This document shows, in pieces, positions 9,983 to 51,921 of a DNA stretch of 64,000 bases (the stretch's first letter is position 1; each line of letters starts with the position of its first letter). This DNA is from Acidobacteriota bacterium (GTDB lineage Bacteria; Acidobacteriota; Vicinamibacteria; Fen-336): positions 163,762-227,761 of the forward strand of contig QHVM01000082.1 of the NCBI GenBank assembly GCA_003223555.1, written 5' to 3'. The notes beneath the pieces are model-generated. The model did no database searches, was not told the origin of the DNA, and saw nothing but the letters and a program-made list of their open reading frames with translations. The position numbers and the translations under genes are program-made.

Positions 9983-11524
9983 ATGGTATCAGGGACCCTC
10001 ATGCTGACCGACCTCGCGATCACTCCCATCAGCGAGACGCTGCGCAACCTGTCGATCGACCGGCGCAGCGGCGACCTCCAGGTCCAGTCGGGGCGCACCG
10101 TCAAGACGGTGTTCTTCGACCATGGCCGCATCGTCTTCGCGGCCAGCAACCTCAAGAAGGACCGGCTGGGGGAGTCGCTGGTGGCCCTGGGGCGGATCAC
10201 CGACGAGGAGTTCAACCGCGCCTCGGCGCTGCTCCGGGAAGAGGGTCGAAAGCGCCGCTTCGGGGACGCCCTCGTCCACGCGGGGGTCCTGGACAAGAAC
10301 GAGGTCGGGCGCTCGGTGGCCCGGCAGGTGGACCGCATCGTGCGCTCGCTGTTCGAGCTGACGGAAGGGGTGACCGCCTTCGAGGACCGCCGCTCGGCCA
10401 TCCCGCTCGAGTACATGGTGAGCCTCTCCGTCCACCGCATGCTCTACGACGGCATCCGCCTGATGACGAGCCCCGAGCTGGTAGCGGCCGGCCTCGGCGA
10501 CCTCGACCGCCGCGTGAGCATGGTGGCCATCACCCCCTTCGCCTTCGACATGAAGGGCTGCCCGCCCGAAGAGCGGGAGATCCTCGAGCAGGCGCGGCGC
10601 AAGGTGACGCTGCGGCGGCTGGCCTGGGAGCCGGGCGGCCTGTCCTTCGCCCGCCTGCGCGCCTGTTACGCGCTCCTCGCCTCGGGCGTCCTGGAGGACG
10701 CCGAGCGCGCCGCCGATCCCGCCGAGCAGCCGGTCGTGCAGATGGAGACGGGTACTTTCCTGCTGTCCGCGCTCCGCCTCCAGCCCGACCCCTCCTCGCG
10801 GGACGCCATCCGGCAGGAGCTGGACGACGAGCTGGAGCGCTCGGCCCACCTCGACCGGGAGATGTGGCTGAAGGTCTCCCGCAACGCGCCCCGCGAGGAG
10901 CTCATCAAGGCGCTCGAGGACAAGATGGAGCGCTACCACACGCTGCTCGACGCGGCCGGGGACGACGAGGCGCTGAAGACCGACCTCGAGGTGATCCTGG
11001 GCCGAGCCTCCGCGATGCTGCGCCTGGCCCGCCAGGCGCCCGCCCCCCCCGCGCCGGCCGCTTCCGCGGCGCCGTCCGAGCCGGTCCCGGCCAATGAGGC
11101 GCGGACCGCCGACGGCGCTTTCGCCGGCGCGGCCCAGCTCGAGCACCTGCTGCTCGAGGGCGAGGTGCGGATGACCGTGTCCGACTACGCCAACGCCGTC
11201 CGCGTCTATGAGAAGCTCGTCGACCTCGCCCCGCGCGTGGCCGCCCACCGGGTGAGGCTGGCCATCGCCATGGCCAGCTACCCGCGCACCGCCAAGCAGG
11301 CGGAGCGTGAGTTCCTCGACGCGCTGCGCCTGGAGCCGAACAACGCCGACATCCATTACCAGTTCGGCCTCTACTACAAGGTGATGAAGCAGCGGGCGCG
11401 GGCCCTGGCCGAGATGCAGGCGGCCGTGCGCCTCAACCCGCGCCACCGCCTGGCCCGGGCGGAGCTGGAGGTGCTGTCGCCCAAGGACAGTGCGCTCCTC
11501 AACCTGAAGAAGCTGTTCAAGTAA
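9983..11524 (+). CDS. DUF4388 (PATAN-like) domain protein with C-terminal TPR repeats
   Basis: N-terminus LTDLAITPISETLRNLSIDRRSGDLQVQSGRTVKTVFFDHGRIVFAASN is the DUF4388 signature. C-terminal TPR-like helices (RVAAHRVRLAIAMASYPRTAKQAEREFLDALRLEPNNADIHYQFGLYYKV...). Confidence 0.7.
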   Translation: MVSGTLMLTDLAITPISETLRNLSIDRRSGDLQVQSGRTVKTVFFDHGRIVFAASNLKKDRLGESLVALGRITDEEFNRASALLREEGRKRRFGDALVHAGVLDKNEVGRSVARQVDRIVRSLFELTEGVTAFEDRRSAIPLEYMVSLSVHRMLYDGIRLMTSPELVAAGLGDLDRRVSMVAITPFAFDMKGCPPEEREILEQARRKVTLRRLAWEPGGLSFARLRACYALLASGVLEDAERAADPAEQPVVQMETGTFLLSALRLQPDPSSRDAIRQELDDELERSAHLDREMWLKVSRNAPREELIKALEDKMERYHTLLDAAGDDEALKTDLEVILGRASAMLRLARQAPAPPAPAASAAPSEPVPANEARTADGAFAGAAQLEHLLLEGEVRMTVSDYANAVRVYEKLVDLAPRVAAHRVRLAIAMASYPRTAKQAEREFLDALRLEPNNADIHYQFGLYYKVMKQRARALAEMQAAVRLNPRHRLARAELEVLSPKDSALLNLKKLFK

Positions 11525-23529: not shown

Positions 23530-23530
23530 C

Positions 23531-24046
23531 TCAGTGGCCGGCCGCCTGGACGCTGCGCGCGCCGATGCGCCGCTCCACGTCGGCGGTGGCGAACCGGGTC
23601 CACCGGGAGGATCCGATGCGCAGGAAGACCTCCACCGTGGCATCGCGGAACCTCTCGTGCCGGAACATGCTTTCGGGAGGCCCGGTGGAGAAGTAGCGGC
23701 CCTCCCCCTCGGGCTTGAGCACGACGAGCGCCCGGCTGCCGGCGGGGAGGAGCTTGTCACCGGGCGCGGCCACCCTCCGCCAGGCCGAGCTCCAGATGGC
23801 GTCCTCCCCCTTGCGCCGGAAGGTCACCTGGGCCTCGACGGTGCGCTGGTCCCGGGTCCCGTTGTTGTGGACCTCGAAGCGGACGACGGGGGCGATGTAC
23901 TGCGTGTCGCCCTGCGCGGGGTCGATCGCCCAGTAGGTCTCCACGTCAGTGACCTCGAGCACGGTCCGGGGATCGGGAGAGCGGCACGCACCCGGCAGGG
24001 CGGCGAGGACGAGCACGGCCGTTCCCGTGGGTCGCTTGAGCCGCAC
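23531..24046 (-). CDS. Secreted hypothetical protein (signal peptide), translationally coupled to the FHA-protease gene (1-nt spacer)
   Basis: MRLKRPTGTAVLVLAALPGAC…; the stop TGA is followed by G then ATG of the next gene. Confidence 0.5.
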   Translation of the reverse strand: MRLKRPTGTAVLVLAALPGACRSPDPRTVLEVTDVETYWAIDPAQGDTQYIAPVVRFEVHNNGTRDQRTVEAQVTFRRKGEDAIWSSAWRRVAAPGDKLLPAGSRALVVLKPEGEGRYFSTGPPESMFRHERFRDATVEVFLRIGSSRWTRFATADVERRIGARSVQAAGH

Positions 24047-24057
24047 CGGCCATCATT

Positions 24058-25218
24058 CTACCGCCGGGCCGCCTCCTCCTGCCGCGGCGGGGGCGCGGCG
24101 ACCGGCATCGCGATCCGGAAGCGCGCCCCCGGACCCTCGGGCAGCAGCTCGAGGGTGCCGCCATGGTCCTCGACGAAGCGCCGGGCGACGGCCAGGCCGA
24201 GGCCGGTGCCGCCCTTCTTGCCCCGGGTGACGAAGGGCTCGAAGAGCCGGTCGCGGATCTCGGGGGGCACGCCGGGACCCTCGTCGGCCAGGGTGAGGAC
24301 GAGGCGCGGCCCGCCGTCGGCGGGCGGAGCGGGCACGAGCTCGGCCCCGAGGTGGAACCGGCCCCGGCCGCCCATGGCGTCGCGGGCGTTGGCGGCGATA
24401 TTGCTCACCACGCGGCGCAGCTTGTCGACGTCGACGGCGGCCACCACGTCCCGGGGCACGCGGAAGTCGCGCACCAGCTCCAGCGTCGGCTGCTCGGCCT
24501 GCACGCCGGCCGCCAGCTCGTCGAGTATCGCGCCGAGGGCCAGCGGGCGGCGGGCGAGGCGCCGCCCCCCGCGCGCGAAGTCCAGCGTCTCCGTCGTCAT
24601 GCGGTCCAGGCGGTCCACCATCCGGGTGATGAGCCGGGCGCGGTCGCGCACCTCCGCCGAGGATCCAGGGTCGTCGGCCAGCGATTCCGCGTAGCCGCGG
24701 ATCACCGTCATGGGGCCGCGGAAATCGTGGGCGAGCATGCCGGCCATCGTCCCGAGGGCCGCCATGCGCTCGGAGGCGATGAGCTCCCGCTGGTAGAGGT
24801 GGTTCTCGAGGGCGAGGGCGGCCCGCGCGGCGAGCGAGGACAGCTCCCGGGCCTCCACCGCGCGCAGCGGACGCCGCCGCCGCCCCCGCCGCGCCCCGAG
24901 GACCAGCATCCCCACCAGGCCGCTGCGGGCGAGCAGGGGCACCAGGACCCCGTCCCGGCTCCGCCCGGGAGGCCGGGTCGGAGTCTCGAGGAGCAAGCCG
25001 TCGGAGAGCAGGAAGCGGGCCTCCGGCGCGTCCACCATCTGGCCCGGCGCCAGGGCCTGCCCGGCCGCGCCGCCCGAGGAAAGCACCTGGAAGGAGTCGA
25101 GCTTGCGGTCCCAGAGCAGCAGCGTCGCGTCGGGCACGTCCAGGGCGGCCGGCAGCTCGCGGGTCAGCAGGCGGGCGAGGCCGTCGAGGTCCGGGACCTC
25201 CAGGACGCGGTCGGCCAT
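24058..25218 (-). CDS. Cytoplasmic sensor histidine kinase with N-terminal GAF-like domain (HisKA + HATPase_c)
   Basis: H-box MAALGTMAGMLAHDFRGPMTVIRGYAESL. The HATPase domain has N, G1 (DEGPGVP) and G2 (GGTGLGLAV) boxes. Confidence 0.8.
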   Translation of the reverse strand: MADRVLEVPDLDGLARLLTRELPAALDVPDATLLLWDRKLDSFQVLSSGGAAGQALAPGQMVDAPEARFLLSDGLLLETPTRPPGRSRDGVLVPLLARSGLVGMLVLGARRGRRRRPLRAVEARELSSLAARAALALENHLYQRELIASERMAALGTMAGMLAHDFRGPMTVIRGYAESLADDPGSSAEVRDRARLITRMVDRLDRMTTETLDFARGGRRLARRPLALGAILDELAAGVQAEQPTLELVRDFRVPRDVVAAVDVDKLRRVVSNIAANARDAMGGRGRFHLGAELVPAPPADGGPRLVLTLADEGPGVPPEIRDRLFEPFVTRGKKGGTGLGLAVARRFVEDHGGTLELLPEGPGARFRIAMPVAAPPPRQEEAARR

Positions 25219-25494: not shown

Positions 25495-26481
25495 ATGATC
25501 GAGGTCGAGAACCTCACCAAACGCTACGGCCGCACGACCGCGGTGGACGGGATCTCCTTCCGCGTGCGGAAGGGGGAGATCCTCGGCTTCCTCGGCCCCA
25601 ACGGGGCGGGGAAGACCACCACCATGCGCATCCTCACCGGCTACCTGCCGCCCACCGAGGGCACGGCCCGCGTGGCCGGCTACGACGTCTTCGAGGCGCC
25701 GATCGAGGTGAAGAAGCGCGTGGGCTACATCCCGGAGACGCCGCCCCTCTATCCGGACATGGAGGTGGACGAGTTCCTGGACTTCTGCGCGAAGATCAAG
25801 GGCATCCCCGGCCCGTCGCGCAAGGGCAAGATCGACGAGGCGGTCGACAAGACCCGCGTCGGCGACGTCCGCGGCCGGCTCATCGGCCGGCTGTCCAAGG
25901 GCTACCGCCAGCGGGTGGGCCTGGCCCAGGCCATCCTGAACAACCCCGACGTCCTCATCCTCGACGAGCCGACCGCGGGCCTCGATCCCAAGCAGATCAT
26001 CGAGACCCGCGAGCTCATCAAGGGGCTGGGGGGCGACCACACGATCGTGCTCTCCACGCACATCCTGCCCGAGGTCTCCATGACCTGCGGTCGGGTGGTG
26101 ATCATCAACAAGGGCAAGGTGGTGGCCGAGGACACGCCGGAGAACCTCACCCGCCGCCTGCGCGGCGCGGGAGCGCTGCGCGTCGACGTGCGGGGCGAGG
26201 CGACCGCGGCCGCCGAGGCGGTCCGCTCGGTACCCGGGGTGGTCTCGGTCCGTCCCCGTCCCGAGTCGGCGGGGGTGGCGACGCTGGAGGTGGAGGCGGA
26301 GCCGGGACGGGACGTGCGGCCGGACATCGCGCGCGCGGTGGTCTCGCGCGGCCTCGACCTGCTCGCCCTGCACCAGGTGGGCATGAGCCTGGAGGAGATC
26401 TTCCTCCACCTCACCACCACCGACGCCGCCCGCGCCGAAGCCCCCCCGGCCGCCCCGCGCTCCGCGGAGGTGACGGCATGA
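25495..26481 (+). CDS. ABC transporter ATP-binding protein (ABC-2 type, GldA-like)
   Basis: Walker A GPNGAGKTT, signature LSKGYRQRV, Walker B ILILDEPT. Confidence 0.85.
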   Translation: MIEVENLTKRYGRTTAVDGISFRVRKGEILGFLGPNGAGKTTTMRILTGYLPPTEGTARVAGYDVFEAPIEVKKRVGYIPETPPLYPDMEVDEFLDFCAKIKGIPGPSRKGKIDEAVDKTRVGDVRGRLIGRLSKGYRQRVGLAQAILNNPDVLILDEPTAGLDPKQIIETRELIKGLGGDHTIVLSTHILPEVSMTCGRVVIINKGKVVAEDTPENLTRRLRGAGALRVDVRGEATAAAEAVRSVPGVVSVRPRPESAGVATLEVEAEPGRDVRPDIARAVVSRGLDLLALHQVGMSLEEIFLHLTTTDAARAEAPPAAPRSAEVTA

Positions 26482-27269
26482 CCTCGCTCCGCAACGTGGC
26501 GGCGATCGTCGAGAAGGAGTGGCGCCACTACTTCGGCAGCCCGATCGCCTACGTCTCGCTGACCGTGTGGGCGCTGCTGTTCGGCATCTTCTTCTACTTC
26601 GCGTTCTCGTTCTTCCTGCGGGAGTCCATGATGGCCGCCCAGCAGATGGAGTTCGGGGGCGGCCCCAAGATGTCCCTGAACGAGCTGCTGATCCGTCCCG
26701 TGATGCACAACATGGCGGTGGTGGCCCTGTTCCTGGCCCCGATGCTCACGATGCGGCTGTTCGCCGAGGAGAAGCGGCAGGGGACGATCGAGCTGCTCGC
26801 CACCGCGCCCCTGACCGACCTCCAGATCGTCCTCGGCAAGTTCCTGGCCGCGGCCGGCCTCTACGGCCTCATGATCCTGGCCGGCCTGGTCGACCTGGCC
26901 CTCATCTGGCACTACGCGTCGACGCCCCCCGAGTGGAAGCCCGTGCTGACCGGCGCTCTCGCCCTGCTGCTCTTCGGGTCGTGCTTCCTCGCCCTGGGGG
27001 TGTTCGTCTCCACCCTCACCCGCAACCAGATCGTGGCCGGCATCCTGTCGTTCTGCCTCTTCCTCGGCGTGTGGACGCTGGGCTGGGCCGACGATCCCGG
27101 GGCGGGGCCGGTCATGAAGGCGATCGCCTACCTCGGGGTGACCACGCACATGGAAGACATGGTCAAAGGGGTGGTGGACCTGAAGGACGTCGTCTTCTAC
27201 CTGAGCTTCATCGCCTTCGGCCTGTTCCTGGCCCACCAATCGGTGCAGAGCCAGCGGTGGAGGGCATGA
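26478..27269 (+). CDS. ABC-2 type transporter permease (GldF-like)
   Basis: 6-TM permease. ATGA overlaps with flanking genes on both sides. Confidence 0.75.
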   Translation: MTSLRNVAAIVEKEWRHYFGSPIAYVSLTVWALLFGIFFYFAFSFFLRESMMAAQQMEFGGGPKMSLNELLIRPVMHNMAVVALFLAPMLTMRLFAEEKRQGTIELLATAPLTDLQIVLGKFLAAAGLYGLMILAGLVDLALIWHYASTPPEWKPVLTGALALLLFGSCFLALGVFVSTLTRNQIVAGILSFCLFLGVWTLGWADDPGAGPVMKAIAYLGVTTHMEDMVKGVVDLKDVVFYLSFIAFGLFLAHQSVQSQRWRA

Positions 27270-28882
27270 TGAAGAGGGCCATCGACCTGCTCGCTCCCCT
27301 CGGCCTGGCCGTCATCGTCGGGTCCGAGGCGTGGCAGCGCTCCGGCCACGCGCTGCCCGGCAAGCCCGACGCCTACCTCATCGCGGGGGCCGCCCTGATC
27401 CTCGCCCACCTGCTGCTGCGCTGGGAGGACGTCTCGAAACGGGTGGGCCGCCGGCAGATGAAGTACGGGGCCAACACCGCCGTGCTGGTGGTGGCCGTCG
27501 TCGGCATCCTCGGCTTCGTCAACTACCTCGTCTACCGCCACACCAAGCGGTGGGACCTCACGAAGAACAAGCGTTACAGCCTCTCCGACCAGACGAAGAA
27601 GGTGCTGGCCGGGCTCAAGGAGGACGTCAAGATCACCTACTTCCAGCGCTCGGCGGAGAGGACGGCGGCCCAGGACCGCATGAAGGAGTATCAGGCCGCT
27701 TCCCCGAGGGTGAAGGTCGAGTTCGTGGACCCGGTGGCGAGCCCGGCCAAGGCCCAGGCCTACGAGGTGCGCGGCCCGTGGCCGATCCTGGTGGTGGAGC
27801 GGGGCGGCAAGCGCGAGAAGGCCACCAACGATTCCGAGCAGGACCTCACCAACGCCTTCATCAAGGTGACCCGCGAGAAGAAGAAGACGGTCTGCTTCGT
27901 GGAGGGCGAGGGCGAGCGGGACATGGACGACGGCGCCGACGGCGGCTTCTCGGCCGTCAAGACCGCCCTCGGCAAGAGCCAGTACGAGACGAAGAAGGTG
28001 CTGCTGGCCCGCGAGCCCGCCGTCCCCGCCGACTGCACGGTGATGGTGGTGGCCGGGCCCCAGCGCGACCTGCTGCCGACCGAGATCGACGCCCTGCGCC
28101 GCTACGCGAAGGGCGGCGGGAAACTGCTCGTGATGTCGGAGCCGGAGGTGAAGTTCCCCACGCCCAACCTGGACGCGCTGGCCAAGGAGTTCAACATCGA
28201 GCTCAGCAAGGACATCGTGGTGGACGTCTCCCCGGTGGGGCAGATCTTCGGGACGGGGGCCCTCACGCCCATCGCCGCCTCGTATCCCTTCCACGAGATC
28301 ACCAAGGACTTCCGGGTCATGACGGTCTTCCATACCGCGCGGAGCGCCGAGGCCGGCAAGGGCACCGTGGAGGGCGTGACCGTGCAGAACCTCCTCCAGA
28401 CCTCTCCCGCGTCGTGGGCGGAGACCGACCTCACCCTGAAGGAGCCGGTGGAGATGAACGAGGGCAAGGACCGCAAGGGACCGATCTCTCTCGGCGCGGT
28501 GGCCACCGTCAAGGCCAGCCCTCCGGCCCCACCGGCGCCGGCCTCGCCGCCCTCTTCGCCGTCGCCCGCCGCGTCGGTGTCTCCTTCCCCCGCCGAGGAG
28601 CCGCCGGCGCCCGCCGAGGGCCGGGTGGTCGTCCTCGGCGACAGCGACTTCGCCACCAACGCGCTGCTCGGCTTCCAGGGCAACCAGGACTTCTTCCTCA
28701 ACACGGTGGCCTGGCTGGCCCAGGACGTCGACCTCATCTCCATCCGGGCCAAGGAACCCGAGGACCAGCGGCTGTTCGTCACCCGGCAGCAGCAGCAGAA
28801 CGTGCTTCTCGTCTCGCTGCTCCTCGTGCCGGGCGCTTTCGTGGTCATGGGCATCGCCGCCTGGTGGAAGCGCCGCGGATGA
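27266..28882 (+). CDS. GldG-like ABC-transport auxiliary component (large periplasmic protein with N- and C-terminal TM anchors)
   Basis: Begins MMKRAIDLLAPLGLAVIVG…; the C-terminal TM is LLVSLLLVPGAFVVMGIAAWWKRRG. Architecture matches GldG/ABC_transp_aux. The upstream part of ORF 26519..28882 is an alternative-frame artefact. Confidence 0.7.
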   Translation: MMKRAIDLLAPLGLAVIVGSEAWQRSGHALPGKPDAYLIAGAALILAHLLLRWEDVSKRVGRRQMKYGANTAVLVVAVVGILGFVNYLVYRHTKRWDLTKNKRYSLSDQTKKVLAGLKEDVKITYFQRSAERTAAQDRMKEYQAASPRVKVEFVDPVASPAKAQAYEVRGPWPILVVERGGKREKATNDSEQDLTNAFIKVTREKKKTVCFVEGEGERDMDDGADGGFSAVKTALGKSQYETKKVLLAREPAVPADCTVMVVAGPQRDLLPTEIDALRRYAKGGGKLLVMSEPEVKFPTPNLDALAKEFNIELSKDIVVDVSPVGQIFGTGALTPIAASYPFHEITKDFRVMTVFHTARSAEAGKGTVEGVTVQNLLQTSPASWAETDLTLKEPVEMNEGKDRKGPISLGAVATVKASPPAPPAPASPPSSPSPAASVSPSPAEEPPAPAEGRVVVLGDSDFATNALLGFQGNQDFFLNTVAWLAQDVDLISIRAKEPEDQRLFVTRQQQQNVLLVSLLLVPGAFVVMGIAAWWKRRG

Positions 28883-30231
28883 AGCTGCCCGATTTCTGGA
28901 AGACCTACGCGGTCCTGGCCGTGCTGGGCGGCCTGGGAGCCTACGTCTACTTCGTCGAGTCCAAGAAGGAGGGGAAGCCGGAGAAGTCGAAGGAGAAGGT
29001 CGTCAGCCTCGACAAGGCAAAGGTCAAGGAGCTGAGCCTGGCTGGAGCGGGCAAGGAAGAGGTGAAGCTCGTCAAGGACGGGACGAGCTGGCGCCTCACC
29101 GCTCCCCAGGCCGCCCCCGCCGACGCGCAGGAGGCCGAGTCGGTGCTCTCCAGCCTGGAGGGGCTGGAGATCGACGAGGTCGTCTCGGAGACGCCGGGCA
29201 AGCTCTCCGAGTTCGGCCTCGACCCTCCGAAGACGAAGGTGACCGTCGTCCAGCAGGGTGGTCCCGCCCAGGAGGTGCTCTTCGGCAACAAGACGCCGGA
29301 CGAAGGCTCGGTCTACGCCAAGCAGCCGAACCGGCCGCGCGTGTTCACGGTGGCCGCCTACAGCGCGAACACGTTCGACAAGAAGCCGTTCGACCTGCGC
29401 GACCGCGACCTCCTGCACGTCCAGCGCGACGCGGTGCGGAAGCTGGAGGTCACGGGCCCCGACGGCGGCTACGCCCTCGCCCGCGACGAGCGAGGCGAAT
29501 GGGGATTCACCGCGCCGCTCGCCACCCGGGCCGGACGGTGGTCGGTCGACGGCCTGCTCGGCAACGTGGAGACGCTGCGCATGGAATCGGTGGCGGCCGA
29601 GGAGCCCGGCGACCTCAAGCCCTACGGCCTCGACAAGCCGGCGCGCGTCGTGAGGCTCGGCCTCGCCGACGGCAACACGAAGACGCTGGAGATCGGCGGG
29701 GCCACCGGGGACAAGAAGCACTACGCCCGCGCGGGCGGGCGGAGCCTGGTGGCGGTGATCCCCGACGCGATCGTCGACGAGCTGGGCAAGGGCAAGGACG
29801 CGCTGCGGGCCAAGCGGCTGCTCGAGGTGTCGAGCTTCGACGTGGAGGGCTTCAACGTCGAGGCCGGCGGCGCGAAGAAGGCCTACGGCCGCACGGCGTC
29901 GAAGGACAAGGACGGCGTCGAGACGTCCAAGTGGAAGCGCACGGTCCCCGACGGCAAGGACCTCGACACCACCAAGGTCCAGGACGCTCTGTTCCTCGTC
30001 GGCGGGGTGGAGGTGCAGGAGTTCCTGGACAAGCCCGCGGGCGCCGAGACCTACGGCCTCGACCACCCTGCCCTGAAGGTGACGATCCGGGAGAAGGACA
30101 AGCCCGAGAGCTTCTTCGAGGTGGGGGAGAAGGGGGGGGCCTACTACGCGCGGCGCGCCGGAGACGAGGCCGTCCTGAAGCTCGACGCGACCAAGGCCGC
30201 CGACCTCGTCAAGAAGTTCTCCGAGCTTTGA
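28879..30231 (+). CDS. DUF4340-like protein (signal-anchor plus repetitive beta-rich periplasmic domain), typical fourth gene of GldA/F/G-type clusters
   Basis: MKLPDFWKTYAVLAVLGGLGAYVYFV… ATGA overlap with the preceding gene. Family call by architecture and context. Confidence 0.55.
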   Translation: MKLPDFWKTYAVLAVLGGLGAYVYFVESKKEGKPEKSKEKVVSLDKAKVKELSLAGAGKEEVKLVKDGTSWRLTAPQAAPADAQEAESVLSSLEGLEIDEVVSETPGKLSEFGLDPPKTKVTVVQQGGPAQEVLFGNKTPDEGSVYAKQPNRPRVFTVAAYSANTFDKKPFDLRDRDLLHVQRDAVRKLEVTGPDGGYALARDERGEWGFTAPLATRAGRWSVDGLLGNVETLRMESVAAEEPGDLKPYGLDKPARVVRLGLADGNTKTLEIGGATGDKKHYARAGGRSLVAVIPDAIVDELGKGKDALRAKRLLEVSSFDVEGFNVEAGGAKKAYGRTASKDKDGVETSKWKRTVPDGKDLDTTKVQDALFLVGGVEVQEFLDKPAGAETYGLDHPALKVTIREKDKPESFFEVGEKGGAYYARRAGDEAVLKLDATKAADLVKKFSEL

Positions 30232-30412: not shown

Positions 30413-30850
30413 TTAGCGATTTGGTGAGGGCGGCGGGAGGGCTAGCGTACGGACGAAGAGGACCACCTTCCAGCGGTCCTCATCGGCGGGGATCTCCCGC
30501 TTGTAGGCCGGCATGATCACGTCCGCGCCGTCCCGCAGCCCGGTCGAGACCTTCCAGAAGATCTCGCCGTCGGTCAGCTTGGCCTGCTTGGCCGGGTTCG
30601 TCAGGTCCTCGGGCGGCTTGACGCCGTAGCGGCCGGAGGGGCCGTCGCCCTTGCCCTTCTCCCCGTGGCACCGCTGGCAGTTCTTGCGGTAGAGGAAGCG
30701 GCCCTTCTGCAGCGCGTCGGCCGAGACGGCGATCGGATTGAGGCGGGTCCGCTCCTCGGGCGGGGCCACCCAGTCCTGGGCCGCCAGCGGCAGGACGGCC
30801 GAGCAGGCCGCGGCCACGGCCAGCGATCCCCAACGGCCGGCGCCGCTCAC
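30413..30850 (-). CDS. Class I c-type cytochrome (monohaem, CxxCH)
   Basis: Signal peptide, CQRCHG haem-binding motif, and a distal Met (IMPAYK). Confidence 0.8.
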
Positions 30851-31512
30851 GGCTTCGGCGTGGCCTGGGGGCCGGGCGACGCCCGCCGGGCCGGGGTCCG
30901 GGTCGAGCGCGAGGCCGAGGGCTTCGCGGCCGCCGGCCTGGCCGCGGCGCCTTCGACGCGCGCGCTCTTGATCACGACCGGGGTGACCGGCACGTTTTCA
31001 TAGGGCCCCTTGGTGGTCGTGGACACGGCCACGATCCGGTCCACGACGTCCATGCCCTCCAAGACCTGGCCGAAGACGGCATATCCGGCGCCGCGGATGC
31101 CGAAGTCCAGGGAGGGGTTGTCCTTCACGTTGATGAAGAACTGCGCGGTCGCGCTGTTGGGATCGCTCGTGCGGGCCATGGCGATCGTGCCGCGCAGGTT
31201 GCGCAGTCCGTTGCGCGACTCGTTGCGGATGGGAGGGCTGGTGGGCTTCTCCTTCAGCTCGGCGTTCATGCCCCCGCCCTGGATCATGAAGCCCGGTATG
31301 ACACGGTGGAAGACCGTGCCCGCATAGTGTCCGGCCCGCACGTACTTCAGGAAGTTGGCGACCGAGATGGGCGCCTTCGCCTGGTCGAGGGCGACCCGGA
31401 TCCGGCCCAGGCTCGTCTCCAGCACCACCACGGGTCCGGCGGGTGCGGAGGGGCTGGGGGAGGGGGAGGCAGCGGCCTGGGCGAGCAGAAGCGCGGCAGT
31501 CGTCAAGAGCAT
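30847..31512 (-). CDS. ppiA: Peptidyl-prolyl cis-trans isomerase, cyclophilin type (periplasmic)
   Basis: [14 protein letters not shown]…GTIAMAR…QFFIN…[13 protein letters not shown] are cyclophilin signatures. Signal peptide present. Confidence 0.85.
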
Positions 31513-31584
31513 GCGGGAATTCTACCAAGGTTGATCCGGTCCGGGCCCGGGCCTTAGAATGCCAGGGTTGCCTTCCTGAGCGGC

Positions 31585-33003
31585 ATGGTCCTCTTCAACT
31601 ACTCCACGAAGGAGCTGACGGCCAAGGTCGTGTATTACGGCCCCGGCCTCTGCGGCAAGACCACGAACCTCCAGTGGATCCACGAGAAACTCCCCATCAA
31701 GAACAAGGGGAAGATGCTGTCGCTCGCCACCGAGGCCGACCGGACGCTGTTCTTCGACTTCCTGCCCATCGAGCTGGGCACGATCCGCGGCATGAAGACC
31801 CGGATCCAGCTCTACACCGTGCCCGGCCAGGTCTTCTACAACGCCACCCGGCGGATGGTGCTGAAGGGGGCCGACTGCGTGGTGTTCGTGGCCGACAGCC
31901 AGGAGCCGATGCTGGACGCGAACCTGGACTCGGTGGCCAACCTCAAGGAGAACCTGGAGGCCAACGAGATCGACGCCGACGAGATCCCGACCGTCCTGCA
32001 GTACAACAAGCGTGACCTGCCCAACGCGCTGCCCATCGAGATCCTGAACGAGAAGCTGAACCCGAAGGGGCTGCCCTACTTCGAGGCGGTGGCCATGAAG
32101 GGCATCGGCGTCGAGGAGACGCTGAAGGGGGCGACGACTCTGGTCTTCCGCACCCTCGCCACCAAGTACGGCGGCGCCGAAGGACCGGCCGCCTCAGCCA
32201 CGGCCACCGCTCCCGTCAAGCCGGCCGCGGCGGCCGCCCCGGCCTCCTCGGTGCCCTCGGCCGGCCCGGCCTCGGCCGTCTCCGCGTCCCCGGCATCGGC
32301 CCGCGGGCCGGTCTCGACGCTGCCGCCGGGCGCCCGGGCCGCGGCGGTGACCGGGGATGCGGACATCGAGCTGGAGCTGCCGGCCGGCATGGAAGGCGAG
32401 GAGATCCAGCTGCCGACCAGCGAGGCCGAGGAGATCTCGCTGACGGTGGACGAGGAGCCGGTCCTGATGGCGGCGGCCGAGACGACCGCTCCTCGCGTCG
32501 ACACCAAGAGCACGCTGGTGCGCGGGGCGAACGATGCGGCGGACCTGCGCCGGCGGATCAGCCAGCCGATCGTGGAGCCGGAGCTGAGCCTGGAGGCGAT
32601 CGACGAGGAGGAGGCGGAGATCGAGGAGATCAGCCTGGAGAGCCCGCCGCCCCGCTCCGCTCCCCCGCGCCCGCCAATCCGCCCGGCGGTCGCGCCCGCG
32701 GCCGTCGCCGCACCCCCGGTGCGGCCGGTGGCGGTCGCCCCGACGCGCCCGGCGCCGGCGGTCCCCACGCCTCGCTCCGCACCGGCACCCCCTCCGCGCG
32801 GACCGGTCCCTCGTCCTGCACCCGCCGCTTCCTCTGCGGTGTCGGCGTCGTCCTCCATCTCCACGGCCCCGGTGTCGGTGCAGCTCAGCGGCGCGCCGGG
32901 GCAGACCGACATCTCGATCCCGGTGGAGGTCATCCTGAACAACGGCACCGCCCAGGTGAACATCCACCTGCGCCTGACGCTGAACCTCAAGCTCCAGGAG
33001 TAG
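31585..33003 (+). CDS. MglA/SofG-family Ras-like small GTPase with ~280-aa low-complexity (Ala/Pro/Ser/Glu-rich) C-terminal extension
   Basis: The first ~195 aa are near-identical in pattern to M. xanthus MglA (YYGPGLCGKTTNL, TIRGMKTRIQLYTVPGQ, QYNKRDL). The remainder is disordered and ends in a short beta-like segment. No mglB-like neighbour. Confidence 0.8.
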   Translation: MVLFNYSTKELTAKVVYYGPGLCGKTTNLQWIHEKLPIKNKGKMLSLATEADRTLFFDFLPIELGTIRGMKTRIQLYTVPGQVFYNATRRMVLKGADCVVFVADSQEPMLDANLDSVANLKENLEANEIDADEIPTVLQYNKRDLPNALPIEILNEKLNPKGLPYFEAVAMKGIGVEETLKGATTLVFRTLATKYGGAEGPAASATATAPVKPAAAAAPASSVPSAGPASAVSASPASARGPVSTLPPGARAAAVTGDADIELELPAGMEGEEIQLPTSEAEEISLTVDEEPVLMAAAETTAPRVDTKSTLVRGANDAADLRRRISQPIVEPELSLEAIDEEEAEIEEISLESPPPRSAPPRPPIRPAVAPAAVAAPPVRPVAVAPTRPAPAVPTPRSAPAPPPRGPVPRPAPAASSAVSASSSISTAPVSVQLSGAPGQTDISIPVEVILNNGTAQVNIHLRLTLNLKLQE

Positions 33004-33167
33004 CCGGGAACAGCTCCGGCGCCCGGCTCCTGGTCTTTTGACGCAGAGGTCGCAGAGAACAGAAAGAGGCCGCGGAGAACAGATAGGGGTCTCTTTCCAG
33101 CGCCGAGCCGGCGTTTTCTTTCCCCTCTGCGTCCTCTGCGTTAAAGAGCCGGTCGGGCCGGGGCGGG

Positions 33168-34073
33168 CTACTCCGCGGCGGGGATGGCCATGAGCGCGCT
33201 GCGCTGGACGTCCTGGTAGCGCACCGCGGCGACGTCGAAGGCCTCGATGGCGGCGAGCAGCTTCTCGAAGGTCGCGTCGAAGGAGGGCAGCGTCTTCCGG
33301 GCCCGGGACAGCGGCGTCGTGCGGGCGAGCACGTAGTTCTTCACGAACGGATGCCGGATGCCGCGCTTCTTGAGCTCGGCGACGACCCGGCCCAGGGCCT
33401 CGTCCGCCGCCCGCACCGCCTCCGCCCTCGCCTCGCGCTGGGGCAGCGTCTTGGCGAAGGTCCCGGGCAGGAAGGCATCCACCCGGCGCAGGATGGGCGC
33501 GAAGGCTCCCCCGGCGAAGCGCTTGTTGGCCTCGTAGAGCAGCCCGAGAGTGATGAGGTGGGCCGCCTCGAACTGGAAGGCATAGTCCTGCTCGCCCTTC
33601 CTGGGCTCGGCCTCGAGCAGGCCGCGGTACATCCGGATCACCTCCAGCGACTTCTCCTTGAGGTTGTGGGCCTTCTCGGTATTGAGGGCCAGGATCTGGA
33701 AGGCGACCTCGGTCTCGGGGATCACGATCGCCGGCACCCAGTCCGCCTTCAGCTTCTGGAGGGCCTTCAATCGGTGGTGGCCGTTCGGCGTCCAGTACAC
33801 CCCGGGCTGCGGCGAGACGAGCACGATCGGGTCCACGAAGCGGTCGATCTTCTTGACCATCTCCTGCAGCCGCTTGGCGTGGGTGGGAGAGAGGTCGCGC
33901 TGGTAGGGGGTGGGGGCGACCTTGTCGATGGGCAGGAGCGCGAAGAGCTGCCAATGGCCGCCCACGGGCTCGCGGTAGGCGGCCAGCGGCCGGCCGCCGT
34001 CGGCCTGGACCTGGGCGGCCAGCGCCGCGACGGCCGGCGCCGGCCGCTCGTCGGGATGCACGGCGAGAGCCAT
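33168..34073 (-). CDS. ParB/sulfiredoxin-like N-terminal domain protein (ParB-like nuclease domain family)
   Basis: VLVSPQPGVYWTPNGHHRLKALQKL is a ParB/Srx-fold motif. Start chosen at MALAVHPDE (34073); the longer ORF N-terminus is low complexity. Confidence 0.55.
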   Translation of the reverse strand: MALAVHPDERPAPAVAALAAQVQADGGRPLAAYREPVGGHWQLFALLPIDKVAPTPYQRDLSPTHAKRLQEMVKKIDRFVDPIVLVSPQPGVYWTPNGHHRLKALQKLKADWVPAIVIPETEVAFQILALNTEKAHNLKEKSLEVIRMYRGLLEAEPRKGEQDYAFQFEAAHLITLGLLYEANKRFAGGAFAPILRRVDAFLPGTFAKTLPQREARAEAVRAADEALGRVVAELKKRGIRHPFVKNYVLARTTPLSRARKTLPSFDATFEKLLAAIEAFDVAAVRYQDVQRSALMAIPAAE

Positions 34074-38885: not shown

Positions 38886-39170
38886 TCAGTGACCGAGCGT
38901 GCGGCAGGACCCGCTGCTGACGCACGGCTTGTCGGGCTCCATGATGCAGCGGTCGGAGCCGCCCGGGACGCTCAGCAGCTGGAGGCTGGGATGCGTGTGG
39001 ACGTGGACCGCGGCCGGCGCCGCCGTCCGGAGGCGGCCGGCCTGGAGCCGGGCCACCGCTTCCTCGAGGGCGGACACCCGCGACTCGAGGTCCGCCGTGG
39101 CCGGCGTCCCGCCCTCGCGGATCTGGGAGAGCACCTCCTCGGTCAGCTCGCGGATGCGATTGTCGTCCAC
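38886..39170 (-). CDS. Small BMC-operon protein (94 aa): N-terminal amphipathic encapsulation-peptide-like helix plus C-terminal His/Cys-rich tail
   Basis: MDDNRIRELTEEVLSQIREGG (amphipathic helix) … HVHTHPSLQLLSVPGGSDRCIMEPDKPCVSSGSCRTLGH. Last gene of the coupled BMC operon. Confidence 0.5.
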   Translation of the reverse strand: MDDNRIRELTEEVLSQIREGGTPATADLESRVSALEEAVARLQAGRLRTAAPAAVHVHTHPSLQLLSVPGGSDRCIMEPDKPCVSSGSCRTLGH

Positions 39171-39194
39171 CAGGCGATTCTAGCGCCGGCCGGG

Positions 39195-39467
39195 CTAGCC
39201 CGCGATCTCGACGGAGTCCACGATCCCCACGATGGCCGCGTCTACCCCGGCCAGGCCGCGGTCGAGCGCCATCATCGCCGCCTTGCCGTCGAGGACCAGG
39301 AGCACGCGGTCGCCGACCCCGGCGTCGACCGCGTCGATGGCCATCACCGCGGGGCCGCGGTCCTGGCCGTCGAGGTCGAGCGGCTGGGCGAGGAGGAGCT
39401 TGGCTCCTTCGAGCTTGCCGTTCTTCTGCGTGGAGACGACGCTGCCCACGACGCGCGCGATCAGCAT
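39195..39467 (-). CDS. BMC vertex protein (BMC-P, EutN/CcmL/PduN family), copy 1
   Basis: MLIARVVGSVVSTQKNGKLEGAKLLLAQPLD… is the EutN/CcmL signature. 90 aa. Confidence 0.88.
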   Translation of the reverse strand: MLIARVVGSVVSTQKNGKLEGAKLLLAQPLDLDGQDRGPAVMAIDAVDAGVGDRVLLVLDGKAAMMALDRGLAGVDAAIVGIVDSVEIAG

Positions 39468-39733
39468 CAGGACGTGCTCCAGTGGTCGACGATGCCCACG
39501 ATGGCGGCGTCGGTCGGGACCTCGGCGGGCAGGAAGGGCAGGGCGGCCTCGCGCCCGCGAACGTAGAAGACCTCCTCCGCCGCTCCCGCGCCCACCGAGT
39601 CGACCGCGACCAGTGGCCGGCCGCTCGGGGCGCGGTCCGGGCGCAAGGGCTGGATGACGAGCAGCTTCGTTCCGGCGAGGCCGGGGTCCTTGCGGGTGGC
39701 GACGACGGTGCCGATGACGCGGGCCAGGAACAC
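39467..39733 (-). CDS. BMC vertex protein (BMC-P, EutN/CcmL family), copy 2
   Basis: MFLARVIGTVVATRKDPGLAGTKLLVIQPL…; its stop overlaps the next start by 1 nt (TGATG). Confidence 0.85.
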   Translation of the reverse strand: MFLARVIGTVVATRKDPGLAGTKLLVIQPLRPDRAPSGRPLVAVDSVGAGAAEEVFYVRGREAALPFLPAEVPTDAAIVGIVDHWSTS

Positions 39734-39736
39734 GGC

Positions 39737-40006
39737 TCAGTCCTTCACTTCGACGGTGTCGACGACGCCCACGATGGCCGCGTCCACCGGACAGTCCTTG
39801 AGGCCGGAAGCCATGCGGGCCGAGGAGCCGCTCACGACGAGGACGCGGTCGCCGAGGCCGGCGTCCACCGTGTCCACCGTGACCACGTATCCGGCCTCGT
39901 CCTTGCCGCGGGGGTCGATCATCCGCACGAGGAGGAACTTCGAGCCCAGCAGGCGCTCGTCCTTCCGCGTGGCGACCACCGTGCCGACCACCCGCGCGAG
40001 GATCAT
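39737..40006 (-). CDS. BMC vertex protein (BMC-P, EutN/CcmL family), copy 3
   Basis: MILARVVGTVVATRKDERLLGSKFLLVRMID…. Confidence 0.85.
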   Translation of the reverse strand: MILARVVGTVVATRKDERLLGSKFLLVRMIDPRGKDEAGYVVTVDTVDAGLGDRVLVVSGSSARMASGLKDCPVDAAIVGVVDTVEVKD

Positions 40007-40033
40007 GAGGGAGAGCCGGGGCCGGGAGGGGGT

Positions 40034-40318
40034 CTACTTCGCCGCCTTGCCGATGGGCAGCACGTCCTCGAGGTTGGCGTGCGGCCGGGGGATCACGTGC
40101 ACGGAGACCAGCTCGCCCACCCGCCGGGCGGCCGCCGCGCCCGCGTCGGTGGCGGCCTTGACCGCCGCCACGTCGCCGCGCACCAGGGCGGTCACATAGC
40201 CGGACCCGATCTTCTCGTAGCCGACGAGGGTGACCTTCGCCGCCTTCACCATGGCGTCGGCGGCCTCGATCATCGCCACCAGCCCCCGGGTCTCGATCAT
40301 GCCCAGCGCTTCACCCAT
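40034..40318 (-). CDS. BMC hexamer shell protein (BMC-H, PduA/CcmK/EutM family, Pfam00936)
   Basis: [77 protein letters not shown] is the near-consensus BMC-H sequence. Confidence 0.92.
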
Positions 40319-40375
40319 GCTGCCTCCCCTGAACGGCCAATGCGGTCAGACTCTGGACCGGCGCGTGGCCGGAAG

Positions 40376-41149
40376 TCAAGTACGGAAGCGCTCGATCGCT
40401 TCCGCCAGCAGGCGCACCAGCTCCTCGCGGCTGAGGCTGAACCGCGCGGGCCCGCCCTCCGCGCCGGCGGCCAGCGTCGGCGAGGGCCGCGGCTCCGGCG
40501 CGCACACCGGCGGAGGGTAGCCGGCCGGCTCGCGCATCGCCGCCAGCCGCTCGACGTCGGCGGCCGGGAGGTGGCCCTCTCGACCCAGCAGCCGCGCCAC
40601 CAGCGCCACGCGCGCCACCTGCTCGAGGGTCTCCATGCGCTCCCAGGCCTGGTAGAGGTCGACCCCGACGGAGAGGGCGCCGTGGTTGGCGAGCAGGAGC
40701 GTCTGGGCTTCGCAGATCGCGCGGCCGACGTTGTCGGCCAGCTCGGAGGTCGAAGGCGTGCCGTAGGGGATCACGGGCACCACGCCGAGCGTCACCACCG
40801 CCTCCGCGGTCAGCGGCCGGTCGAGCGGGATCCCGGCCACCGCGAAGCCGGTGGCGGTCGGGGGGTGGGCGTGCACGACCGCGCCCACGTCGCTCCGGCG
40901 GCGGTAGACCGCGGTGTGCATGAGGACCTCGGTCGAGGCGCGCCCCCCGTCGAGGGGCCGGCCCTCGAGGTCGGTCCTCACGATGCATTCGGGCGCGAGG
41001 AAGCCCTTGCAGACCGCGGCGGGCGTCACGTAGAGGACGCTTCCGTCACGGACCGAGATGTTGCCCTCGTTGCCGCCGATGAGCCGGCGGGCGTAGAGCC
41101 GCCGGCCGACCTCGACCATATCGGCCCGGATCCGGTCGCTGCCGTTCAC
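40376..41149 (-). CDS. Class II aldolase/adducin-family enzyme (fuculose-/rhamnulose-phosphate aldolase-like) with Pro-rich linker and C-terminal encapsulation-peptide-like amphipathic helix
   Basis: GNEGNISVRDGSVLYVTPAAVCKG…, VVHAHPPTATGFA and LANHGALSVG are class II aldolase motifs. C-terminus PAGYPPPVCAPEPRPSPTLAAGAEGGPARFSLSREELVRLLAEAIERFRT. Confidence 0.85.
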   Translation of the reverse strand: MNGSDRIRADMVEVGRRLYARRLIGGNEGNISVRDGSVLYVTPAAVCKGFLAPECIVRTDLEGRPLDGGRASTEVLMHTAVYRRRSDVGAVVHAHPPTATGFAVAGIPLDRPLTAEAVVTLGVVPVIPYGTPSTSELADNVGRAICEAQTLLLANHGALSVGVDLYQAWERMETLEQVARVALVARLLGREGHLPAADVERLAAMREPAGYPPPVCAPEPRPSPTLAAGAEGGPARFSLSREELVRLLAEAIERFRT

Positions 41150-41412
41150 GGGCCGGGGGGCAGGGCCAGGGCGCGGTCGCGGCAGGCCGGCGAGCAGAAG
41201 TGCATCTGGCGGCCGCCGACGACCGCGCTCACCGCGCGCTCCCGGGGGAGGAAGGTGTTGCAGATGCGGTCCCGCACCATGTCGACGCCGGGGGCGGGCG
41301 TGGCGGCCGGCGGCTCGCGCAGGCCCTCGACCAGGCCGGCCACGAACCGCAGCCCGATCCGGACGAGGAAGAGCGCGACCAGGAAGCGGACGAAGGCGAC
41401 GATGAGGATCAC
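41146..41412 (-). CDS. Membrane-anchored YHS/TRASH-domain (metal-binding zinc-ribbon-like) protein. Start taken at GTG 41412, which gives a GTGA overlap with the upstream TPR gene
   Basis: One TM helix (VILIVAFVRFLVALFLVRIGLRFVAGL), then VRDRICNTFLPRERAVSAVVGGRQMHFCSPACRDRA (YHS pattern C-x2-…-FCS-x2-C). GGAGG lies 5 nt upstream of the GTG. The longer ATG-41505 ORF would overlap the TPR gene by 97 nt. Confidence 0.55.
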   Translation of the reverse strand: MILIVAFVRFLVALFLVRIGLRFVAGLVEGLREPPAATPAPGVDMVRDRICNTFLPRERAVSAVVGGRQMHFCSPACRDRALALPPGP

Positions 41413-48730: not shown

Positions 48731-49183
48731 CTAGGGCTGGAGCGCGGTCTCCACCGCGCAGGTGGCGGAGGCCTCGTCGCGCACCTCGGCGCGGCGGTCG
48801 CGAGAGACGTCGCGGGGCCACTGCCGCCGGTCGAGCGCCATCCGCCGGCGCTCGACGGCGTGGCCGGCCAGGCGGTCCACCAGCTCGACCAGCGCTTCGG
48901 CGTCGAGGGGCTTGGCGAGGTGGCCCGTGATGGCCGGGACCTGGCCGCCCTTCTCGGGGGACAGCGAGCGGATCGCGCGGACCAGACCGATCCCGTGCTG
49001 GCCGGGCATGTCGAGGTCCACCACCATCACGTCCGGGACGACGCCGATGACCGTCGCGAGCGCGCAGCCGGGGCTCGATACCGTGATCACCTGCGCGCCC
49101 CGGCCGCGGAGCAGCCTGGCCACCGCCTCCAACGATTCCACGTCGTCGTCCACCACGAGCACCCGCGCCCCCCGGATTCCCAT
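48731..49183 (-). CDS. Single-domain response regulator (CheY-like receiver)
   Basis: VLVVDDDVESLEAV…VMVVDLDMPGQHG…AITGHLAKP (REC motifs: acidic pocket, phosphoacceptor Asp, conserved Lys). Confidence 0.8.
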   Translation of the reverse strand: MGIRGARVLVVDDDVESLEAVARLLRGRGAQVITVSSPGCALATVIGVVPDVMVVDLDMPGQHGIGLVRAIRSLSPEKGGQVPAITGHLAKPLDAEALVELVDRLAGHAVERRRMALDRRQWPRDVSRDRRAEVRDEASATCAVETALQP

Positions 49184-51207: not shown

Positions 51208-51921
51208 GTGAAGGGAAGCCTGTCCCAGGGTGCGCTCCCGGTCGTCCTGGGCCGCCTCTACGTCGAGCGCCGCTCCGGCCTGCTCCACCTCAAGCGCGGT
51301 GCGGAACGGCGGAGCGCCCGCTTCCGCAAGGGACACATCGTCCACGCCGACACCAACGCTGCCGAGGACCACATGGGCGAGGTGCTGGTGCGGACCGGGC
51401 TGCTCAGCCAGGCCGACCTCGACCGGGCCACCGCCCGCGTGCTGCGCGAGCGAAAGCGGCTGGGCCAGGTACTTCAGGAGCTGCGGATCCTCGACGAGCA
51501 CCTGCTCGAGGACGCCCTCGCCCTGCACGTGCAGGAGGTCCTGCGCAAGGCGTTCCGGTGGGAGGACGGCGAATGGTCCTTCGAAGAGCAGGAGGTGGAG
51601 ACCCCGCTGCAGGAGGACGCGACGCTGAAGGTCTTCACCGGCGACGTGATCCTGGAGGCGGCCCGCAGCGTGGCCGACCCCGCCGCGGTGCGGCACGCGC
51701 TCGGCGACCCCGACCGACCGGTCGTGCTGAGCGCCGACCCGGTGCTGCGCTTCCAGCAGATCGCCCTCAACGAAGCCGAGAGCGAGGTGCTGGGCCGGGT
51801 GGACGGCACGCGGACCGTACGGCAGCTCGTCTCGGCGCTCTCCCTGCCGGCGGAGGAGACCGAGCGGAGCCTGCTCGGACTCGTCTGCCTCGGCATGGTG
51901 GAGCCTTCGCCCGGAACCTGA
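51208..51921 (+). CDS. DUF4388 (PATAN-like) domain protein, GTG start preceded by GGAGG
   Basis: LSQGALPVVLGRLYVERRSGLLHLKRGAERRSARFRKGHIVHADTN… is homologous in pattern to the N-terminus of 9983..11524. Confidence 0.6.
   Translation: MKGSLSQGALPVVLGRLYVERRSGLLHLKRGAERRSARFRKGHIVHADTNAAEDHMGEVLVRTGLLSQADLDRATARVLRERKRLGQVLQELRILDEHLLEDALALHVQEVLRKAFRWEDGEWSFEEQEVETPLQEDATLKVFTGDVILEAARSVADPAAVRHALGDPDRPVVLSADPVLRFQQIALNEAESEVLGRVDGTRTVRQLVSALSLPAEETERSLLGLVCLGMVEPSPGT

Follow-up and report, generated by a model that had tools for sequence, protein, structure and literature searches.

A long-tailed MglA GTPase of Acidobacteriota with a conserved C-terminal extension and a predicted terminal beta-hairpin module

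Background

What is an MglA-type GTPase that continues for 275 residues beyond its G domain, and what might such a tail do for it? The question is raised by one gene in a stretch of 64,000 nucleotides, referred to here as the window, from contig QHVM01000082.1 of an Acidobacteriota genome assigned to the class Vicinamibacteria (assembly GCA_003223555.1). MglA is the paradigm of bacterial Ras-like polarity switches, and the current models of its action involve three or four separate proteins, namely MglA, MglB and RomR/RomX. In the large and abundant soil lineage considered here, the switch seems to have become fused to a disordered hub that ends in a targeting element, and a sister gene combines MglA with GYF, receiver (REC) and PATAN domains. 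Such natural fusion experiments may show which partners and surfaces matter, and they open a way towards understanding what orphan MglAs and PATAN do. The long-tailed MglA is thus a real and tidy lead for the bacterial-polarity field. An initial annotation of the window, made from the nucleotide sequence and its translations without database searches, had described the gene as an orphan MglA with a disordered extension; its individual claims are taken up below where the results bear on them.

Results and Discussion

Identification of the G domain

The search of the PDB confidently identified MglA as the relative of the N-terminal part of the protein: residues 3-197 align without gaps to residues 3-196 of the Myxococcus xanthus MglA (5ymx_A, E-value 1.2e-70), with similar scores for its other structures (6h17/6hjh, about 1e-70) and for the Thermus thermophilus MglA (3t12, 1.6e-65), while the next-best match, and the first that is not an MglA, is Rab7 (about 1e-5). 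The global identity to M. xanthus MglA (MxMglA) is 57%, and the acidobacterial MglAs, which show 57-62%, are similar in this respect in all Acidobacteriota classes. Pfam and NCBIfam gave generic Ras, Arf and small_GTP matches only, with Pfam Ras/Arf lying within residues 50-184. Roco-type leucine-rich repeat (LRR) and COR domains do not flank the G domain, and neither Pfam nor NCBIfam matched any family in the tail.

All sequence motifs of the G domain (Table 1) are present in their orthodox form. Residues G19, G21, G24, K25, T26, R53, T54, D58, V79-Q82 and N141/K142/D144 are invariant in all 98 homologues that were aligned, and T78 is found in 97 of them; the catalytic residues are all under strict selection. 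Group 1 of these GTPases is defined by the TVPGQ version of the G3 motif, in place of DxxGQ or GTPGQ, together with an arginine finger, and Arg53, which stands next to the G2 residue Thr54, corresponds to the intrinsic arginine finger of MglA, the roles of the residues being those given in published work on MglA (Wuichet & Sogaard-Andersen 2015). The R53-T54 pair stands in the context EADRTLFFD, and the MglB-contacting beta2 strand, DRTLFFDFLP, is identical to that of MxMglA. The match of residues 1-195 to MglA reported in the initial annotation is therefore borne out by the PDB scores and by the invariance of the Group-1 motifs, as is the catalytic Gln of its VPGQ, which is Gln82. Its catalytic Arg, placed in TIRGMKTR, is the wrong residue, since the arginine finger is R53 of the DRT motif. 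Because the catalytic apparatus is intact and strongly constrained, the G domain is predicted to be a GTP-hydrolysing switch, neither locked nor degenerate.

Compared with the M. xanthus and T. thermophilus proteins (PDB 5YMX, 6IZW, 3T12), the likeness thus extends over the G domain from end to end, and includes the P-loop, Arg53-Thr54, TVPGQ with Gln82, NKRD and the beta2 strand, whereas the differences are the length (about 195 aa there, 472 aa here), the tail with its hairpin and the lack of an adjacent mglB. The size by which Group 1 has been circumscribed (a single domain of 150-240 aa) is likewise exceeded, with 472 aa in this protein and 300-550 aa in the members of its family. The gene product is almost certainly a genuine Group-1 MglA with a conserved long-tail architecture.

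Table 1. Features of the long mglA gene and its product, and of genes discussed with it (positions in the window, except for the last row)
Feature	Positions	Strand	Residues	Remarks
Long MglA gene	31585..33003	+	1-472	ATG-to-TAG frame, 472 codons plus TAG
MglA Group-1 GTPase domain	31585..32175	+	1-197	
G1/P-loop GPGLCGKT	31639..31662	+	19-26	Gly21 kept
G2 DRT	31738..31746	+	52-54	intrinsic arginine finger Arg53, Mg-binding Thr54
G3 TVPGQ	31816..31830	+	78-82	catalytic Gln82
G4 NKRD	32005..32016	+	141-144	
Ala/Pro/Ser/Glu-rich tether	32176..32859	+	198-425	predicted disordered (composition; AF2 coil with low pLDDT)
TLPPGAR short linear motif	32317..32337	+	245-251	
First acidic-hydrophobic motif GDADIELELP	32353..32382	+	257-266	family consensus DELLxSLELQP
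KSTLVRG...DLRRRISQ	32506..32565	+	308-327	invariant Thr310, then short basic helix
Second acidic amphipathic motif EPELSLEAIDEEEAEIEEISLES	32575..32643	+	331-353	
Pro/Ala-rich basic spacer	32644..32859	+	354-425	21 Pro; Asp/Glu absent in 361-425
Amphipathic beta-hairpin module STAPVSVQL...DISIPVEVILNNGTAQVNIHLRLTLNLKLQE	32860..33000	+	426-472	47 aa, extreme C-terminus
Sigma-70-like promoter match TTGATC-18-TAGAAT	31531..31560	+		within the 72 bp between the divergent genes, some 25 bp ahead of the ATG
Terminator-like hairpin plus T-run	33099..33115	+		3' of the stop codon
Divergent cyclophilin, PpiA-like	30847..31512	-		PF00160, E 3.5e-46; apparent N-terminal signal peptide (by eye)
DUF4388/PATAN protein 1	9983..11524	+		E 4e-14, plus C-terminal tetratricopeptide repeats (TPR)
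DUF4388/PATAN protein 2	51064/51208..51921	+		E 1.7e-18
Sister paralogue examples	L062:10001-11932, L055:10001-12592, also L057, L059-L061, L070			related loci, outside the window

Coding status and distribution of the long form

The initial annotation had allowed that the extension could be a product of a missed stop or a frameshift in the assembly, and the fusion of two genes in the assembly may be considered together with these. Long open frames arise easily in a region with about 72% G+C, and two other frames across this region also contain a single stop, so the length of the open frame is in itself no evidence of coding. However, the G+C content of third codon positions (GC3) is coding-like throughout, at 0.82-1.0 in every 50-codon bin of the plus-strand frame, the whole tail included, and the identical 472-aa protein is found on 7 independent metagenome contigs. 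In the search of 5.8 billion proteins, over 120 protein clusters (410-515 aa) matched the query along its entire length, and the same full length and the same end module are encoded in dozens of genomes that stem from different studies. Since the coding-like GC3 goes together with recurrence of the architecture, the motifs and the C-terminal module in all these clusters, the tail is real coding sequence; conservation in so many genomes refutes the suspected assembly error, and the probability that we leave to an artefact of any kind is negligible.

A scan of species-representative genomes gave 570 relatives confirmed by tblastn, from which 80 loci were kept, and all 80 encode long or multidomain forms of MglA. 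Nearly all of them are labelled Acidobacteriota, mostly of the class Vicinamibacteria, with divergent versions in Holophagaceae and Polarisedimenticolia. Four of the records carry other labels (Hyphomicrobium, Patescibacteria and Verrucomicrobiia are among them), and we infer that these are mis-binned contigs. The length of the tail varies among the classes from about 100 to 350 residues, with the Asp/Glu-plus-Leu/Ile motifs always kept and the same kind of hairpin at the end; the form of about 300 aa from Holophagaceae is a miniature, in which the tail is made up of just a linker, a single acidic motif and the hairpin. The long tail is the standard form of mglA in the whole class, and no one-off oddity.

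The census of 2015 classified only G proteins of 150-240 aa and lists two Group-1 MglAs from Acidobacteria, 194-196 aa long, of which one belongs to an mglB-mglA pair (Wuichet & Sogaard-Andersen 2015). The long forms are missing from it because of this size filter, and censuses of prokaryotic small GTPases filtered by size have in this way missed whole subfamilies. Our search of the accessible literature for long or acidobacterial MglAs turned up nothing beyond that census. The G domain is of a known kind, while the conserved tail, the module unique to the family, the distribution across the phylum and the sister fusion with GYF, REC and PATAN domains are, as far as we could determine, undescribed.

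The tail: a predicted disordered tether with conserved islands

The tail comprises residues 198-472. Its first 228 residues, up to position 425, are dominated by Ala (52), Pro (41), Ser (24) and Glu (22), with a net charge of -12. Among the 98 homologues, pairwise identity averages 88.6% in the G domain, whereas it is only 47% for the terminal module and 29% for the tail; therefore, the switch is very strongly constrained, and the tail changes fast between fixed islands. In the full-length AlphaFold2 (AF2) model, built from the 98 homologues, the mean predicted local distance difference test (pLDDT) score is 54.5 and the tail is coil except for a helix at residues 316-326. Even residues 1-61 of the G domain score below 50 in this model, probably due to the near-invariance of the G domain in the alignment. 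A model of residues 304-472 reached a mean of 61.3, with a helix at 315-326 (about 76) and a hairpin formed by residues 439-451 and 454-466 (about 60). The disordered extension of about 280 aa proposed in the initial annotation is thus recovered as 275 aa, rich in Ala, Pro, Ser and Glu and modelled as coil with low pLDDT; its acidic blocks correspond to conserved motifs and its terminal beta-like segment to the hairpin, which AF2 models with low confidence.

Several short islands recur within the tether. The [TS][LI]PP core of the TLPPGAR motif is present in 102 of 160 family members (19.7 +/- 4.1 in shuffled sequences) and the fuller PPGx[RK] in 32 of 160 (5.2 +/- 2.3 in shuffles); motifs of the TLPPGxR type are absent outside Vicinamibacteria. 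The first acidic-hydrophobic motif has equivalents in other classes. In the island that contains the short basic helix T310 and R322 are invariant, and L321 and I325 are conserved in at least 90%. A PilZ-like reading of this region, in which RRRIxR and the module would form RxxxR...DxSxxG, was considered by eye and rejected, as neither the second motif nor the spacing fits.

The predicted terminal beta-hairpin module

The module at the extreme C-terminus follows the family consensus xxPVxVxL...GxTDVxIPVEVxLxxGxAQVxIHLRLTLNLKL. Of all 11-mers in the protein, the one in the last strand of the module has the highest beta-amphipathicity (moment 3.04, as compared to 0.94 +/- 0.58); the beta moment exceeds 2.5 in about 90% of 165 family members, and the median net charge of the last 14 residues is +2. 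The HMMER profile of the 47 residues, searched against 1.84 billion representative proteins, retrieved 100 representatives at E<1e-3, nearly always with the match at the extreme C-terminus. Those inspected are long MglAs or N-terminally truncated fragments thereof, and no convincing occurrence in any other protein context was found among the representatives searched; the few multi-repeat matches (P0155, P0169) look spurious. In this search the module occurs only in the long-MglA context. The C-terminus, whose conservation in homologues the initial annotation had proposed to check, is conserved in the 98 aligned homologues, with the pairwise identity given above for the module.

A single representative of 228 aa (P0131) has a lipoprotein-like signal peptide (MKKAALIFLTVALAFSVAACGKK), followed directly by the Pro-rich and acidic tail and the module, and lacks the GTPase domain; a rearrangement or an artefact of gene calling may lie behind it.

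Absence of MglB from the neighbourhood

MglB was sought with phmmer, using as the probe the M. xanthus protein (MxMglB), which matches PDB 6h5b_B over its full length (E-value 1e-99, no mismatch in the alignment) and is sensitive enough to detect the T. thermophilus MglB at 3e-17 in the same search. No match at E<=1 was found among 11,497 six-frame open reading frames (ORFs) of at least 60 aa, taken from the window and from 85 related loci (+/-10 kb each). Robl_LC7 was absent from the Pfam scans of nearly all genes of the window, and from the precomputed Pfam assignments of overlapping contigs. According to the published criterion, an mglA is an orphan if there is no mglB within four genes, and in the census 390 of 449 MglAs were coupled to mglB, with 59 unlinked (Wuichet & Sogaard-Andersen 2015). 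Since MglB was undetected in the 64-kb window and within 10 kb in the 85 loci, the long mglA is an orphan by this four-gene criterion, family-wide in the loci examined, and it is to this extent, as a statement about the neighbourhood, that the lack of an MglB partner asserted in the initial annotation holds.

Bdellovibrio bacteriovorus presents a similar case of mglA without adjacent mglB. The Bdellovibrio protein has lost the P-loop Gly21, replaced by Ser, which is consistent with independence of a GTPase-activating protein (GAP); the proteins described here differ in that Gly21 is invariant and the tail is long.

A sister paralogue and the link to PATAN and GYF domains

In several of the same genomes there is a further MglA, 577-929 aa in length and in some cases encoded on one contig with the long MglA (loci L035/L062 and L037/L070), in which the G domain is followed by a linker, a GYF_2 domain, a receiver and a DUF4388/PATAN domain. 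Because its G domain is closer to the long MglA of Vicinamibacteria (65-72% identity) than to MxMglA (49-58%), this sister paralogue probably arose by duplication within the Vicinamibacteria lineage. The genes that flank it, annotated by eye, encode EAL and GGDEF proteins and Wza/Wzc-like components of polysaccharide export. As far as we found, the MglA-GYF_2-REC-PATAN fusion is an undescribed multidomain architecture of MglA, and it constitutes Rosetta-stone support for an association of MglA with PATAN.

The initial annotation had noted two DUF4388/PATAN proteins in the window and, as a speculation, had connected them with the GTPase. Both proteins are confidently recognised by their domain matches (Table 1). 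The proposed connection receives indirect support from the sister fusion and from published gene neighbourhoods, as MglA>PATAN pairs occur occasionally (Wuichet & Sogaard-Andersen 2015). The two genes themselves are not conserved neighbours of the long mglA. In a comparison with PatA-type PATAN-REC proteins, the sister architecture, the two stand-alone DUF4388 proteins and the published neighbourhoods make up the likeness, while the long MglA itself has no PATAN domain and the PATAN genes of the window lie 18-21 kb away.

The TLPPGAR motif of the tail, or more generally [TS][LI]PP(G x R/K), resembles the ligand consensus of eukaryotic GYF domains. That the PPGxR motif of the tail and the GYF_2 domain of the sister protein could link the two MglA paralogues is only an idea, suggested by this analogy.

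The gene of PATAN protein 2 overlaps with the 5' extension of a long ORF that runs on the other strand; of this ORF, probably just the Glu/Leu/Phe/Val dehydrogenase part (50119 to about 51120) is really produced. A stand-alone receiver protein of 150 aa (48731-49183, minus strand), encoded some 2 kb from the same PATAN gene, is possibly part of the same signalling set.

Possible functions of the tail

From the tail one may suspect that the switch carries an anchor or regulator of its own and does not rely on an adjacent mglB gene. The whole of the observations would be best explained by a hydrolysis-competent MglA to which an anchor or regulatory tail is joined by a tether, a reading that we hold to be somewhat on the probable side. 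A fuller mechanism, in which anchoring is combined with regulation in cis, can be offered tentatively, and we have more doubt than confidence in it. The G domain would cycle between GTP and GDP as in the MglA of M. xanthus or T. thermophilus. The net-basic amphipathic hairpin would serve as a built-in element of localisation or self-association, whether by binding to the membrane, by binding to a polar scaffold or by extension of a beta-sheet. The tether of about 230 residues would act as a flexible hub, so that the G domain samples the volume around the anchor and the short motifs are offered to partners. The motifs composed of Asp/Glu and Leu/Ile may behave as the D/E-rich helices of MglB and RomR do in the allosteric pocket of MglA, leading to regulation and/or competition with partners in cis, and a strand of the tail could join the open beta0 edge. 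The cellular output might be type IV pili, another polar machine, or perhaps something apart from motility?

The precedents for such contacts come from the separate proteins. In MglA, alpha5 (K181, K185) and the beta2-beta3 loop (L64, I67) form an allosteric pocket to which both the D/E-rich helix at the C-terminus of MglB and the RomR tail, rich in Glu, bind, and both modulate nucleotide exchange (Baranwal et al. 2019); the N-terminal strand of MglB is added to the open beta0 edge of MglA, according to published structural work. In the long MglAs the pocket residues L/I64, I67, K/R181 and R/K189 are 99-100% conserved. The tail shares with the MglB C-terminal helix and the RomR tail the short acidic stretches, the spaced Ile/Leu and the character of a flexible extension (compare EISDDDIDNLF with AIDEEEAEIEEISL), and the pocket residues L64, I67 and K181 are retained in the family; it differs from them in that the acidic motifs stand in cis on the GTPase. 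RomR also combines Pro-rich with Glu-rich regions.

A number of points weigh against this account. The function of the tail is inferred throughout. The acidic motifs resemble the helices of MglB and RomR in composition, a likeness noted by eye that falls short of demonstrable homology; position 185 of the pocket is variable and not basic in most members; and neither of the two AF2 models, with the low mean scores given above, docks any element of the tail onto the G domain. The retained G21, R53 and Q82 would argue that a GAP still acts, and an unlinked mglB is quite possible. To our knowledge, amphipathic beta-hairpins are no established membrane-targeting device in bacteria, where helices are the norm. 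Finally, the gene neighbourhood, of a housekeeping or metabolic character, gives no functional hint.

A still more elaborate version, which we consider rather improbable, would make the tail a complete cis surrogate for the trans-acting regulators, with the acidic helices in the MglB/RomR pocket, the hairpin on the beta0 edge or at a membrane or pole anchor, and the PPGxR motif as the wiring to the sister MglA-GYF-REC-PATAN protein, resulting in a self-localising and self-regulating GTPase. If it were true, we would be dealing with a bacterial counterpart of the eukaryotic design of a hypervariable region plus anchor. Eukaryotic Ras, Rho and Rab proteins consist of a small GTPase followed by a disordered C-terminal hypervariable linker and a basic or hydrophobic targeting element. 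As an analogy only, the long MglA has the same succession of GTPase, disordered linker and basic/hydrophobic terminal element; it differs by having neither a CAAX box nor lipidation, by a linker that is ten times longer, and by an end element predicted to be a beta-hairpin.

Or perhaps the protein is a conventional MglA served in trans by an unlinked MglB (and perhaps RomR/RomX), with a tail that is a lineage-specific spacer or an effector-recruiting hub of no regulatory role? The residues on which a GAP depends (G21, R53, Q82) and the beta2 strand that contacts MglB are the same as in MxMglA, and unlinked mglA genes are known (the 59 of 449 cited above). Some Acidobacteria do have the pair, for example Chloracidobacterium with mglB-mglA (Wuichet & Sogaard-Andersen 2015), and the search for MglB covered just the window and 10 kb on either side in each related genome. 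That MglB went undetected near any of the 85 loci speaks against this alternative, as does the conservation of several motifs and of the end module across classes, which goes beyond the needs of a passive spacer; we regard the conventional alternative as possible, though not probable.

Another candidate, raised already in the initial annotation, is a paralogue akin to SofG of M. xanthus, in other words a second GTPase that works with a landmark of the bactofilin type, as SofG does with BacP, and is not the MglA of the organism. SofG belongs to Group 1, has an arginine finger, works independently of MglB and, with sequence beyond the G domain, exceeds MglA in length, and these genomes contain at least two MglA paralogues. 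However, SofG has 239 aa (Wuichet & Sogaard-Andersen 2015), and the long MglA, set apart from it by description, has a longer C-terminal tail and no N-terminal addition, as it starts exactly where MglA does. Its 57-62% identity to MxMglA, similar across the classes, fits the acidobacterial MglA lineage and makes orthologous descent likely. A bactofilin domain was not found in the Pfam scans of the genes of the window, although in M. xanthus linkage is not required either. We consider a SofG-like identity quite unlikely, and the tethered MglA remains the preferred explanation.

Cultured Vicinamibacteria have been described as non-motile. If this is truly the case, the long MglA family may reveal a role of MglA outside motility.

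Genomic neighbourhood

The long mglA looks monocistronic, as suggested by a promoter-like site in front of it and a terminator-like hairpin behind it (Table 1). The promoter-like site is a consensus match only, found once as compared to 0.0 expected in shuffles; terminator-like hairpins number 2 as compared to 1.0 expected, which is by itself not above chance.

The gene upstream, on the opposite strand, encodes a cyclophilin, as the initial annotation had correctly recognised. It is a conserved neighbour, syntenic with the long mglA in 40 loci, and probably not a functional partner, because the apparent signal peptide should keep its product from meeting the Pro-rich tail in the cytoplasm. Synteny is strong in Vicinamibacteria, where the genes stand in the order ABC ATPase, permease, GldG-like auxiliary protein, DUF4340, divergent cyclophilin, long mglA, convergent ParB_N-like gene, PIG-L/NEW3 and DinB. 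The window has its gene order in common with the related loci, which makes an uncultured Vicinamibacteria-like bacterium its very probable source. As the neighbours differ in other classes, where other housekeeping genes (Der, CPBP protease, ComEC, IHF) are found, this synteny is probably historical rather than functional.

The convergent gene (33168-34073, minus strand) encodes a protein of about 301 aa and accompanies the long mglA in 16 loci. Its product shows weak generic similarity to the ParB/Srx superfamily (ParB 4umk at 1e-4, with SerK and SbnI weaker); the suggestion that it might be a bactofilin adaptor of the PadC type was dropped, because these weak matches give no specific support.

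The cassette at 25495-30231 (plus strand) consists of the ABC ATPase, an ABC-2 permease, the GldG-like ABC_transp_aux protein (with a weak match to the IFT52 GIFT domain) and DUF4340, and is located upstream of the cyclophilin and the long mglA in some 30 loci of Vicinamibacteria. There is a resemblance to the GldA/F/G-type transporter of Flavobacterium gliding; a functional tie to MglA is putative. Just upstream of this cassette (21961-25218, minus strand) lie a fusion of FHA with a trypsin-like protease, a protein of 161-171 aa without a family and a GAF-HisKA-HATPase histidine kinase, and the kinase belongs to the conserved genes of the syntenic block. Farther along the window, at 38886-42026 (minus strand), there is a bacterial microcompartment cluster with three EutN/CcmL pentamer genes, a BMC shell protein, a class II aldolase, small ORFs and a TPR protein, which recurs in several of the related loci.

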